20,592 nt of DNA, taken from assembly GCA_029856365.1 (NCBI GenBank), contig JAHQWW010000068.1:1-20592 (forward strand), written 5' to 3'. The position numbers and the translations under genes were made by a program. Under the pieces are notes generated by a model, which saw only the letters and a list, made by a program, of their open reading frames with translations, did not search any database and was not told the origin of the DNA. Positions 9,118-15,122 of the stretch are shown here, one piece after another (the stretch's first letter is position 1; each line of letters begins with the position of its first letter). This DNA comes from Candidatus Hodarchaeota archaeon (lineage in GTDB: Archaea; Asgardarchaeota; Heimdallarchaeia; Hodarchaeales; Hodarchaeaceae).

Positions 9118-10359
9118 TTATGAGGGTACATATCGTAAAATTGCACAAATTCCTCCGAAACTTTGAATCTGTCGTCCTTCTTCAGTTTGTGGATTGATTA
9201 TCTCGATGGTAGCACCTGTTTTCTCAGCTAAGTCTCCTAGTTCCATGATAAGATCTTTCTGAATAATTTCCCAATCATTAACCTTACACTGAGGACATTG
9301 TTGTTTTTGAAAAATGGATACATAATTCTCTACTTCTGTTGGTTTCAGTGTTTTTTCTTCCTTAAATCCACAGTTTTGACATTCACTTTTTATTCGAATT
9401 AAATCAATTCCCTTAGAAACTAATAGAACATCAACTGCTCCCATTAGAAGATTCTCACGAACCTCTTTCTCTCCATAATTAGCTTTTCCTTCCATTAAAG
9501 CATCTAAGAATTGATGAACCAATCGTTTTTCTTCTATAAGGATAACACCTTTTAAGATATCGTCGGATTCAGCCACAAGTTCGCTAATCCCACTTTTATC
9601 TCCTCCATATCCTAAATCTTTAATTCCCACTATTTTATCCTTCAATCTGATATCAAAATACTCAACAACTTGATCTTTTATTTGCCCTGGACCACCAATG
9701 ATCACCCCCTTTAATTCAAACTGAGCTTCCTCAATAAAAATCTGTTTCATATCGTCTGCGATCCGTTTTAGAAATCGTGCTACAGCTTCTTCACGTAATC
9801 TGGCAAAGCGGACGCTACTTTGACCTCCTTTGCGATGTTTTTTTGCAGCTCCACTTCGGGTACTCTTTACAATCTCAATTTGATCTCCTTTCAGAGTCGC
9901 TATTGTAGCTTTAGCACTATCGATAGCTAACAAAGCGTATGTATCTTTTTCAACTAAGCGGTCAATTAAATGGTCAACATGAAAGCGATTATCACATACG
10001 TATAACTTACGAGATATTGGATCTGGAGGCTCAAAAATATAAGATTCAATTTTATAGTCTTTATGACCAGAATCAGCAGTCGCTCCTGCAAAGATTGCTA
10101 TCCCTGATCCTGGTGATTTATGCCCATAGAGCTTGAGTTTTCCAATTACATTTCTTAACGCTGAAACGACATTCTTCTGGGTAAACTTACTACGAATATT
10201 AGTCGCGGTACCCACTTCATCTGTTAATTCTTGGACAAAATCAGCTATAGCTCTGTTTGGAGGCACATATAATGATATTAAACAAGTACTACCATCTGGA
10301 GATTCCTTTTTTTGCAAGTTAGTGAGCATTTTCTCAAATTTATACTGCTTATAGCTCAT
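9118..10359 (-). CDS. prf1: Peptide chain release factor aRF1 (eRF1 family)
   Basis: ISLYVPP, NIRS (NIKS variant), YVCDNRF, KHRKGGQSSVRFARLR, CxxC...CxxC minidomain and FGGICAILRY. Confidence 0.97.
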   Translation of the reverse strand: MSYKQYKFEKMLTNLQKKESPDGSTCLISLYVPPNRAIADFVQELTDEVGTATNIRSKFTQKNVVSALRNVIGKLKLYGHKSPGSGIAIFAGATADSGHKDYKIESYIFEPPDPISRKLYVCDNRFHVDHLIDRLVEKDTYALLAIDSAKATIATLKGDQIEIVKSTRSGAAKKHRKGGQSSVRFARLREEAVARFLKRIADDMKQIFIEEAQFELKGVIIGGPGQIKDQVVEYFDIRLKDKIVGIKDLGYGGDKSGISELVAESDDILKGVILIEEKRLVHQFLDALMEGKANYGEKEVRENLLMGAVDVLLVSKGIDLIRIKSECQNCGFKEEKTLKPTEVENYVSIFQKQQCPQCKVNDWEIIQKDLIMELGDLAEKTGATIEIINPQTEEGRQIQSFGGICAILRYVPS

Positions 10360-12776: not shown

Positions 12777-13016
12777 CTAGGGTGGAGAGATAAGGATCAC
12801 GTTGTCTCCTCGAAGGATGATATTTCCTAGTGTTTCAGTTACTACCTCTTGATCATTCTCTTCTTTTGGAGGGTAGATCATCTCTGCATCTTCTAGGTAT
12901 AAATTAAGATGTGGGTCGTAGCTGCGTAAGATCCCACGGATTTCACGACGCCCTCTAACTTTTAGGATTACTTTCTTGTTGAGAGCTGCTGTTAATACAT
13001 CTAAAGGTCTACTCAT
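12777..13016 (-). CDS. Sm-like archaeal protein (LSm/SmAP1)
   Basis: RPLDVL, Sm1 motif GILRSYDPHLNLYLEDAE and Sm2 motif LGNIILRGDNVILISP. Confidence 0.96.
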   Translation of the reverse strand: MSRPLDVLTAALNKKVILKVRGRREIRGILRSYDPHLNLYLEDAEMIYPPKEENDQEVVTETLGNIILRGDNVILISPP

Positions 13017-13060
13017 AATGAATCACTTTATTGTAAGGGAAGTATTATTATGAAAAGGAA

Positions 13061-13200
13061 TGCTCCGACCGGGATTTTCAGTTCACAAACATCCTGTTTG
13101 TCTCTTTTGAACCCGGGTCTTTCCGCTTGGGATCAACATCGAATTCAGCCAGATTCGGGGCGAAAGCCCGGAATGATGGGCCGAGCTACACTATCGGAGC
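13061..13200 (-). tRNA. tRNA-Glu(TTC) with two non-canonical introns: about 44/45 (13153-13120, 34 nt) and 59/60 (13105-13075, 31 nt)
   Basis: Acceptor GCTCCGA/TCGGAGC-A, D-arm GTGT..TCAT, CCGGG CT TTC GC CCCGA, variable AGAC, T-arm CCGGG TTCAAA|T CCCGG; T-loop intron has a perfect TTCA/TGAA helix. Register of the first intron is ambiguous by 1-2 nt within an A-run. Confidence 0.85.
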
Positions 13201-13410
13201 AAAACCTCACGAATTACCACGTTTATTGGCAATACAACCCCCCTTGCTTCAAATTAAAAAGCTTTGTTAATAGTATGGTAAATGGCGAAACAAGAGCTTT
13301 AAAAGTACCTTAGCAATTTTTATTTGGCTATTCAATAAATTAGAAATACTTAATTTTTTAGAAAAGCTTGTTTCGCTATTGCAGGGTCTGAAGATAAGGT
13401 GTTTAATAGT

Positions 13411-13773
13411 ATGGTTTCTCTACGTCATCGAAAAAAACAAAAAAGATCTTTAGAACGCCATGAAACCCAGTTATTAGCGCGAAACGCTGTAAAATTTCTA
13501 ATCGAAGAAAGCTTAAAATTCCGCTTAACAAACCCTCAAAGATCCCAAGAACTGTTTCATGCTGCCCAAAAAATCGGAAAAAGAGGACGATTTCATCTTC
13601 CACATAAATATCGCTTCTTATTTTGCTGGTATTGTCATTATCCATTAAGTATTGAAACAACAAAAATTCGTTTAAATAGCAAAAAGCATCAAATCCATTA
13701 TCTTTGTTTGAACTGTAAGAAGGAAAAACGATATGGTTATCTATATAGTAGAAAAAAAAAGATGGAGGAATAA
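13411..13773 (+). CDS. rnp4: Ribonuclease P protein component 4 (Rpp21/Rpr2 family)
   Basis: Helical N-terminus, KYRFLFCWYCHYPL and YLCLNCKKEKRYGY Zn ribbon; ATG 13411 preferred over GTG 13399. Confidence 0.88.
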   Translation: MVSLRHRKKQKRSLERHETQLLARNAVKFLIEESLKFRLTNPQRSQELFHAAQKIGKRGRFHLPHKYRFLFCWYCHYPLSIETTKIRLNSKKHQIHYLCLNCKKEKRYGYLYSRKKKMEE

Positions 13774-13775
13774 TT

Positions 13776-14102
13776 ATGTTTGTAGCGATTTATACGACTT
13801 TTGGCAGTCTAGATGAAGCAAAGGCCTTTGGACGTCTCTTGATTGAAAAAAAACTGGCAGCTTGTGTAAATTTAATTCATGACGTTCATTCAATCTATCG
13901 TTGGAAAGGGAAAATTGAAGAGACAACAGAAATAATTCTATGGGGCAAAACTCAAGATTTTTTGATTGAAAAGATCCAAGCTATGATCCAAGAGTCTCAT
14001 CCCTACGATTTACCAGCTTTAGTAGTTTATCCAATCCACTTTGGAAATGAGGCATATTTAAAATGGATATCTGAAGAGACCCAGGCTCTACACATCAACT
14101 GA
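13776..14102 (+). CDS. cutA: Divalent-cation tolerance protein CutA
   Basis: LIEKKLAACVN, SIYRWKGKIE, HPYDLP and YLKWI. Confidence 0.95.
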   Translation: MFVAIYTTFGSLDEAKAFGRLLIEKKLAACVNLIHDVHSIYRWKGKIEETTEIILWGKTQDFLIEKIQAMIQESHPYDLPALVVYPIHFGNEAYLKWISEETQALHIN

Positions 14103-15122
14103 AACCTTAAACCGATTATTAAGCTTTTCTGTGTGAATTTCAACTCCTAGTACTTCTTGAATCAACCTAATATTTGTTTTAGTATGATTAGACAAATAAG
14201 GCGTATAAAAAGTACTGGAATTGTGTGCTGTTGCCATGATCGGTAAAATTTGATCGGTTAAAAAAGGATCAACAGTACTTTGGCTGTTTAATGAAACGAT
14301 ATAGCGTTCGGAAGCTTTTTGACCGACTTTTTCAGCAGATAACTTAGGTTCGCCAACAAAATCCCCGCTTAATACACTATCTCCTATTCTTGAGAATATT
14401 AATACACCAGAACCTGGGTTATTAGCATTTACATATTCAATACTAATTTTTGATTCAATATCATTGTTTAATAAAGCTGTTGCGATTGTATCTGCTTGTC
14501 TTTCTGCGACCCGTGCTTTTTGAAGGTGTTTTGACGCAAATGATAGAATATAAACCAATTTTGGTTTTTGGAAAAATTCAAGATTCAATCCTTGTAAGAA
14601 CGAAGGCGAATGCATAACAGCTGACACGCTTGCTCCTCCCTTTGGATAAAAACCATGACGATGGATTTTTAGTGTAAGTCCAAAATTCATTTGACGAAAA
14701 ATCTCCCAAGTGACATGATTTACATAAGGAATACTGGGAGCCCATTTTCCAAATGTAGCTCCCCCCTGAAACTCTACTTTAAGGGTGTGATTCTTAACTC
14801 CAAGGACTGCCATCTGAAGAGACTGTAAAATCAGTCCTAAACTGCCCGCTGTGGAAACAGAAATCTGCAAATGTGATCTCCAGGAATTTGTAGGAATGAA
14901 AGAGATGGTTTCTGACCCGAGAAAATCTCCTTCTAATTCACCTCCACATAATTTAGCTAGTGACCGAACACCTACAAGATGTTGTGTTCGGAGTCCTGAT
15001 TTTGGTCTATTTTTTCGGATATTTACAATTTTAACAGGTTCTTGTGTTATGAGGGCAAGAGATGTCACTAATCGAAGAATAGATCCTCCTCCTTCTCCTA
15101 AACTTCCATCATAAACTTGCAA
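14088..15122 (-). CDS. rtcA: RNA 3'-terminal phosphate cyclase
   Basis: DGSLGEGGGSILR, NIRKNRPKSGLRTQHL, TAGSLGL, GFYPKGG, VAERQA, LTDQI and SNHTKTN (catalytic His present); TTG start. Confidence 0.95.
   Translation of the reverse strand: MQVYDGSLGEGGGSILRLVTSLALITQEPVKIVNIRKNRPKSGLRTQHLVGVRSLAKLCGGELEGDFLGSETISFIPTNSWRSHLQISVSTAGSLGLILQSLQMAVLGVKNHTLKVEFQGGATFGKWAPSIPYVNHVTWEIFRQMNFGLTLKIHRHGFYPKGGASVSAVMHSPSFLQGLNLEFFQKPKLVYILSFASKHLQKARVAERQADTIATALLNNDIESKISIEYVNANNPGSGVLIFSRIGDSVLSGDFVGEPKLSAEKVGQKASERYIVSLNSQSTVDPFLTDQILPIMATAHNSSTFYTPYLSNHTKTNIRLIQEVLGVEIHTEKLNNRFKVSVDV

Follow-up and report, generated by a model that had tools for sequence, protein, structure and literature searches.

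A locus that standard tRNA finders pass over raises two questions: whether the 140 nt at positions 13061..13200 of the minus strand encode a working tRNA and, if they do, where the inserts that interrupt it are cut out. The locus lies in a window, the whole stretch of DNA analysed (20,592 nt), that makes up contig C79 of assembly G000 (4.24 Mb, 35% G+C, 83.6% complete). An initial annotation had read it as a tRNA-Glu gene with introns at non-canonical places only, in the variable loop and the T loop. Sequence comparison with related genomes confirmed it as a genuine tRNA-Glu(UUC) gene of a Hodarchaeales-type Asgard archaeon, made up of three exons and two introns. We consider it highly probable that the reading holds as a whole, namely that the gene is functional and probably the sole copy, and that it carries two protein-spliced introns, at positions 44/45 and 59/60.

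Gene anatomy and detection

The gene spans 140 nt, including the discriminator A73, and does not encode CCA. We number it by index, with index 1 at window position 13200 on the minus strand, on which all of its parts lie. Exon 1 (47 nt, 13154..13200, tRNA positions 1-44) holds the 5' strand of the acceptor stem (GCTCCGA, indices 1-7), the D arm, the complete anticodon arm (CCGGG-CTTTCGC-CCCGA, indices 30-46), A43, and A44. It is followed by intron 1 in the variable loop (34 nt, 13120..13153, indices 48-81, position 44/45). Exon 2 (14 nt, 13106..13119, indices 82-95) consists of G45 A46 C48, the T-stem 5' strand CCGGG, and T-loop positions 54-59 (TTCAAA), and is invariant in nine orthologues. 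Intron 2 interrupts the T loop (31 nt, 13075..13105, indices 96-126, position 59/60), and exon 3 (14 nt, 13061..13074, indices 127-140) supplies U60, the T-stem 3' strand CCCGG, the acceptor 3' strand TCGGAGC, and A73.

With the inserts removed, the joined exons gave a canonical 75-nt cloverleaf, as expected of BHB-type tRNA introns, and ARAGORN called it tRNA-Glu(ttc), in agreement with the isotype first proposed. This product has a 7-bp acceptor stem, a 5-bp T stem, the T loop TTCAAAT, and a predicted 4-nt variable loop, AGAC. The assignment to a tRNA-Glu isoacceptor is consistent with both the anticodon, TTC (UUC in the RNA) in a 7-nt loop, and the body of the molecule, since, anticodon arm aside, the exons match exactly those of the genome's CUC tRNA-Glu gene on contig C24. 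By sequence reading there is no insert after position 37, and the anticodon loop, CTTTCGC, runs uninterrupted; the claim that the gene lacks a 37/38 intron and is interrupted only at non-canonical sites was therefore upheld. In the predicted mature tRNA, the uppermost position of the anticodon stem holds a C27.A43 mismatch (window positions 13171 and 13155). It is invariant in nine close orthologues and recurs in genomes G004, G005, and G019, while G021, G010, and G002 have U27-A43.

The unspliced locus received no call from ARAGORN, with or without its intron search, and no Rfam match, RF00005 included, at the gathering score or at E <= 10. The absence of a match to RF00005 at its gathering threshold is as expected, because 65 nt of inserts lie in two arms. 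Across the whole assembly, neither ARAGORN nor Rfam detected any tRNA-Glu. Standard tools leave much of this genome's tRNA set unannotated: ARAGORN with intron search returned only 31 tRNA genes, 18 of them intron-bearing, with zero calls for Glu, Phe, Trp, Asp, His, Cys, and Tyr. One of its calls, a 'tRNA-Pyl(cta)' with a 35-nt intron on contig C32, is probably a mis-parse.

Splice motifs and intron register

Splice sites were placed by a single rule for the BHB motif, under which each cut lies two bases past its strand of a four-pair helix. The rule reproduced the canonical 37/38 intron of the CUC paralogue, where the central helix CUCU (32-35)/GGAG is followed by the bulges C36 A37 | A and UU|C38. 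Applied to intron 2, it predicts a complete, textbook hBHBh' motif that is perfectly compatible with the cloverleaf. In the central helix, TTCA (positions 54-57, 13108..13111, minus strand, indices 90-93), with the bulge A58 A59 | A after it, pairs with TGAA (13077..13080, minus strand, indices 121-124), after which comes the bulge A A | U60. All four pairs are Watson-Crick in this genome, and the other eight orthologues have GGAA on the second strand, with A.G at one end. Each predicted junction falls two bases into a 3-nt bulge (AA|A and AA|T). Helices would flank the motif on both sides, with the 5-bp T stem, on which the TTCA strand stacks, serving as helix h, and helix h' closed by the pair G97.C120. 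This closing pair covaries, being GC in five sequences and AU in three, and the adjoining pair 98.119 switches between AU and UA, while the inner CAAAC/GUUUG stem is retained. An unconstrained fold at 60 C includes the central helix. The first reading had described an intron that splits TTCAAA|T within a clear BHB, and we located both its TTCA/TGAA helix and its inner ACAAAC/GTTTGT hairpin (indices 100-105 and 111-116). A 58/59 register for this intron was rejected, as its central helix would set GUUC against CUGA with zero Watson-Crick pairs. A K-turn-like tandem G.A in intron 2 was also set aside, having been found in this genome alone.

Intron 1 has a relaxed motif of the HBh' type. Its predicted central helix sets CCCG (positions 39-42, the 3' strand of the anticodon stem; 13156..13159, minus strand), followed by the bulge A43 A44 | U, against CGGA at the 3' end of the intron (13122..13125, minus strand), followed by the bulge A A | G45. 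The four-pair helix and the bulges AA|T and AA|G thus appear in relaxed form, with three Watson-Crick pairs, CCG (indices 43-45) with CGG (indices 76-78), plus C.A. No outer helix h is present, and the one flanking helix, h', is weak and short, with 2+2 bp around an intervening bulge (C49.G75 and U50.A74, plus two pairs). Since the anticodon stem contributes its 3' strand to this central helix, it cannot be closed while the intron is cut, which agrees with the earlier proposal that the CCG/CGG helix requires the anticodon stem to unpair. For junctions set by the cloverleaf, the chance of finding such a helix with a random 4-mer of the window is ~1% for the variable loop and ~0.8% for the T loop.

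Comparison across the genus bears on where intron 1 ends. Its central helix is invariant among the nine close orthologues, and the covariation comes from five more distant genes whose junctions were placed by hand using the same cut rule. The variants found genus-wide are CCCG/CGGA, CCCG/CGGG, CCTG/CAGA, CCTG/TGGA, CCTG/CGGT, and CTCG/CGAG. Two of these form a perfect 4-bp helix, CCCG/CGGG in G021 and CTCG/CGAG in G002. The three CCTG variants (with CAGA, TGGA, and CGGT) accompany an in-step change of the anticodon-stem 5' strand, so that three strands covary. The positional orthologue in G005 does not have the variable-loop intron and reads CCCGAAGAC, which is exactly the mature junction predicted here, C27.A43 included.

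The initial annotation had placed this intron at the boundary of the anticodon stem and the variable loop and had left its register between 43/44 and 44/45. The location was correct, and cut geometry, alignment column 81, the G021 and G002 helices, and the G005 allele together give 44/45, with a 34-nt intron and the variable loop AGAC. The other register then considered corresponds to an intron of 33 nt (indices 48-80), which would leave CCCGAAAGAC in the mature tRNA with a 5-nt variable loop. It has some appeal, as the 3-bp CCG/CGG helix is flanked by AAU and AAA and can be read as having two neat 3-nt bulges, and the 76-nt product, too, is called tRNA-Glu by ARAGORN. However, three pairs do not place the cuts symmetrically, as a dimeric enzyme needs, and shifting either cut to regain a four-pair helix breaks the tRNA; the 34-nt register is the only one with both symmetric cuts and a tRNA product. 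The shorter intron would also make column 81, the last base of the 34-nt intron, exonic, yet this column varies between A and G in the nine orthologues, whereas the 75 other exon columns are all invariant. Moreover, the intron-less orthologue has 9 bases at this point rather than 10, CUC isoacceptors likewise have 4-nt variable loops, and the helices of G021 and G002 are perfect over 4 bp in the 34-nt register alone. We therefore regard the 33-nt intron as very unlikely and retain the 34-nt one. A junction that would restore a C27-G43 pair (CCCGG + AAAGAC) was rejected as well, since it needs a 6-nt variable loop and leaves no complementary 4-mer for the central helix.

Thermodynamic folding did not recover the variable-loop motif. 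It was absent from the unconstrained minimum free energy fold (-50.5 kcal/mol, versus -40.0 for the best fold containing both BHBs) and from the RNAalifold consensus, which paired CCCG with the T-stem strand CGGG, not in BHB geometry. The fold containing both motifs was slightly more stable than the cloverleaf plus the T-loop motif (-40.0 versus -37.7), owing to a 7-bp alternative helix between the D loop (indices 14-20) and the freed anticodon-stem 5' strand (indices 30-36). We regard this 7-bp helix as fortuitous: all the bases in it are unchanged among the close orthologues, and by our reading the anticodon-stem strand CCAGG of G004 and G019 would break one pair. Also rejected was a box C/D guide within intron 1, where CUGA is present but there is no C box, the sequence is unconserved, and 34 nt is too short.

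Conservation and the status of the gene

BLAST against 40 relatives found eight full-length orthologues with 85-93% identity, along with the paralogue that this genome carries and more divergent versions elsewhere in the genus. We aligned this gene with the eight, and the nine sequences required zero gaps. Exons had 0 variable columns out of 75, compared with 37 out of 65 in introns (Fisher p = 2e-16), divided between intron 1 (18/34) and intron 2 (19/31); every variable column thus fell within indices 48-81 or 96-126. The adjacent Rpr2 protein has diverged to 61-80% identity across these same orthologues, and the invariance of the exons therefore reflects selection and not recent divergence.

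The order LSm, tRNA, Rpr2, CutA was conserved in 17/17 genus genomes checked. As all 17 genes lie between LSm and the Rpr2-CutA pair, they are positional orthologues. In this window, LSm lies at 12777-13016 (minus strand), the RNase P subunit Rpr2/Rpp21 at 13399-13773 (plus strand; a weak match, with 26.8 bits against a Pfam cut-off of 29.3 bits), and CutA at 13776-14102. The RNA 3'-phosphate cyclase RtcA follows at 14088-15122 (minus strand), ~900 bp from the tRNA gene, which is thus surrounded by RNA-processing genes (12777-15122); aRF1 lies at 9118-10359.

Candidate transcription signals flank the gene. An A/T-rich box, AATAAA, at 13222..13227 (minus strand) lies at -27..-22 from the mature 5' end and may be an archaeal TATA box. 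It is largely kept in the nine orthologues (AATAAA in 6/9), and neighbouring bases are variable. Immediately 3' of A73, the T-rich trailer TTCCTTTTC (13052..13060, minus strand) is a putative terminator and is present as TTCCTTTT in 8/9 orthologues. A second conserved A/T-rich element, CTTTTTAATTT, lies at 13251-13261, 51-61 nt upstream of the tRNA gene. This element falls in the 198 bp that separate the tRNA gene from Rpr2, which is transcribed divergently, and it may be the promoter of either gene.

Searches for further copies pointed to this locus as the probable sole tRNA-Glu(UUC) gene. No other Glu gene of the UUC type was found in the assembly, and Glu-type 5' halves, 3' ends, and UUC anticodon arms led only to this gene and to the CUC gene on C24. 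Three Rfam tRNA hits that ARAGORN did not name were also examined, and none was Glu. A second copy may nevertheless exist in this genome, given an assembly completeness of 84%. In the relative G009, whose 4.9-Mb chromosome is closed, BLAST found only a two-intron UUC orthologue and one CUC gene.

Two other accounts of the locus deserve consideration. The gene could be a decaying or silent pseudogene, with the working tRNA-Glu(UUC) in the unassembled 16% of the genome, a view to which the silence of the standard finders, the incomplete assembly (83.6%), and the weakness of one splice motif lend some colour. It is difficult to reconcile with exons that show no difference among nine species despite divergence of the introns, the flanks, and the proteins encoded alongside, or with splice-motif helices kept by compensatory change, and BLAST of the congener's closed chromosome found the orthologue of this gene alone. 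We consider it most improbable that the gene is a pseudogene. Still less credible, to the point that we give it almost no weight, is the idea that the inserts are not endonuclease-spliced introns at all and represent either a chance look-alike or coding sequence. An 87-aa open reading frame at 13050-13313 on the plus strand does overlap the tRNA gene in this genome, but this antisense frame is interrupted by stop codons in 7/9 orthologues, and we rejected it as a gene. Nor can the cloverleaf, the synteny, and the substitution pattern be products of chance. A functional gene with two spliced introns remains our preferred reading.

Splicing, intron turnover and known systems

The genome encodes the proteins that would be expected to process such a precursor. 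A crenarchaeal-type EndA alpha protein of 183 aa on contig C38 has both Pfam domains, and its best solved relatives are 3P1Z_B (the closest), 3AJV_B, and 2CV8_A, the first two of which we take to be the catalytic subunit of Aeropyrum pernix EndA. It aligns without gaps through the specificity-loop region, with K39 opposite A. pernix Lys44, and keeps the motif His (Ala in 3AJV) and the nearby Tyr and Lys, presumably the catalytic triad. A second, divergent EndA-fold protein (210 aa, contig C152) has 27% identity to EndA alpha. Its matches are to structural-subunit chains: NEQ261, the 4FZ2 chain over its N-terminal part, and the fused 5X89 chain over the first unit. As a structural beta subunit would be expected to show such a profile, we refer to the protein as beta-like. 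RtcB is present on contig C46. By homology, then, the host would possess an alpha and a beta-like EndA subunit with a specificity-loop lysine, together with RtcB. In the crenarchaea-specific EndA loop, Lys44 confers a broad substrate range (PMC3241643), and Asgard archaea have been described as having an (alpha-beta)2 EndA with the L1 (crenarchaeal-type) loop (PMC5829648).

We propose a maturation path in which transcription, the cleavage sites, and the order of splicing are all predicted from sequence. A precursor of ~140 nt, bearing two protein-spliced introns of 34 and 31 nt, would be transcribed, and the splicing endonuclease would cut two bases into each 3-nt bulge. At the T loop, the T stem would act as the outer helix and UUCA/UGAA as the 4-bp central helix, with bulges AAA and AAU. 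At the variable loop, CCCG (39-42) of the anticodon stem would pair with CGGA of the intron 3' end, so the anticodon stem would be open while intron 1 is cut and would form only afterwards. The endonuclease would be the predicted EndA of this genome, of (alpha-beta)2 type, and RtcB would join the exons. The product would be a 75-nt tRNA with variable loop AGAC, the C27.A43 mismatch, and the mature junctions ...CCCGAA|GACCCGGGUUCAAA|UCCCGG...

Intron sequences at this locus suggest exchange between tRNA genes. Within this genome, intron 1 is unique, and intron 2 recurs only in the CUC paralogue, being 94% identical to its T-loop intron (contig C24 28726-28756, locus L021). The UUC and CUC T-loop introns are 87-97% identical within each of seven genomes (L002-L009 versus L022-L027), whereas orthologous UUC T-loop introns have a mean identity of 71% between genomes. 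Such within-genome likeness is suggestive of concerted evolution, with gene conversion acting across the identical 3' exons. In other classes, a 2026 Asgard census saw next to nothing of this copying route (10.64898/2026.10.13.758758). The CUC gene of G009 and G012 has no T-loop intron. We also observed that the tRNA-Asp(GUC) gene beside Glu(CUC) in G002 and G013 (L017 and L020) has a T-loop intron with a GTACAAAC...GTTT hairpin, the same as that of the Glu T-loop intron of other species, which may represent sharing across isotypes.

Across the genus, the syntenic tRNA-Glu(UUC) locus holds between two and four introns, in six or more configurations, and D-loop introns are present in some species and absent from others. 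The G019 orthologue (L028, contig C23 11500-11695) is 195 nt long and apparently has four introns, two in the D loop and one each at 44/45 and 59/60. Three introns are present in the orthologues of G021, G004, and G010, while that of G002 is without the T-loop intron and that of G005 without the variable-loop intron. G016 (L011) and G001 (L012/L032) carry, at the same locus, an unrelated 35-nt intron at 45/46, with the central helix CCUA/GAGG, a 9-bp h', and the same mature loop, AGAC. The 44/45 and 45/46 introns could be either two independent, adjacent insertions or the result of one intron being replaced by another. We tentatively suggest that the locus is one of live intron turnover, with gene conversion between tRNA genes and at least six configurations, although we hold this at slightly less than even confidence.

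Genes of this kind have already been published from Thermoproteales and from Asgard archaea, and the present one is a further well-documented example. Crenarchaeota have introns at 45/46, 59/60, and other non-canonical sites, several per gene and with relaxed hBH/HBh' motifs (PMC4090602, PMC3241643). The introns described here resemble those of Crenarchaeota, especially Thermoproteales, in being short and protein-spliced, in lying outside 37/38, in their strict or relaxed BHB, and in often occurring several to a gene (PMC4090602, PMC3241643). The crenarchaeal introns occur in lineages with an (alpha-beta)2 EndA carrying the specificity loop; site 59/60 is listed there, while 45/46 is one base off site 44/45 here, and the host in our case is a Hodarchaeales-type Asgard archaeon rather than a member of TACK. 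The pre-tRNA-Glu(UUC) of Methanopyrus kandleri offers another parallel, with the same isoacceptor, a non-canonical HBh' intron, and an (alpha-beta)2 EndA (PMC5829648), but its intron is in the D arm and its EndA is loop-less, whereas the alpha subunit here has the loop lysine. Asgard genomes were described in 2024 in which inserts, frequently several to a gene and at non-canonical positions, break up over 90% of the tRNA genes (PMC11291895). A 2026 preprint on 90 Asgard genomes found that many inserts are missed by software and that T-arm inserts usually have a strong BHB and variable-region inserts a weaker one (10.64898/2026.10.13.758758). Our locus follows this pattern, with a strong T-loop motif and a relaxed variable-loop motif. 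Both surveys, however, centre on other classes (PMC11291895, 10.64898/2026.10.13.758758), and the preprint has several Heimdallarchaeia lineages at less than one insert per gene, whereas the tRNA-Glu(UUC) locus of this genus carries two to four.

Alone, the gene is of little import; it restores a missing essential tRNA to the genome's annotation, and its splice register was fixed by comparative evidence alone. The Asgard lineage to which the genus belongs is the one placed closest to eukaryotes. The three-way covariation of the anticodon-stem 5' strand, its 3' strand, and the intron 3' end indicates that the variable-loop BHB competes with the anticodon stem, which would therefore require a folding step before the tRNA takes its final shape. 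Across the genus, the series of intron states at one syntenic locus is good material for the study of tRNA intron gain and loss in Asgard archaea.
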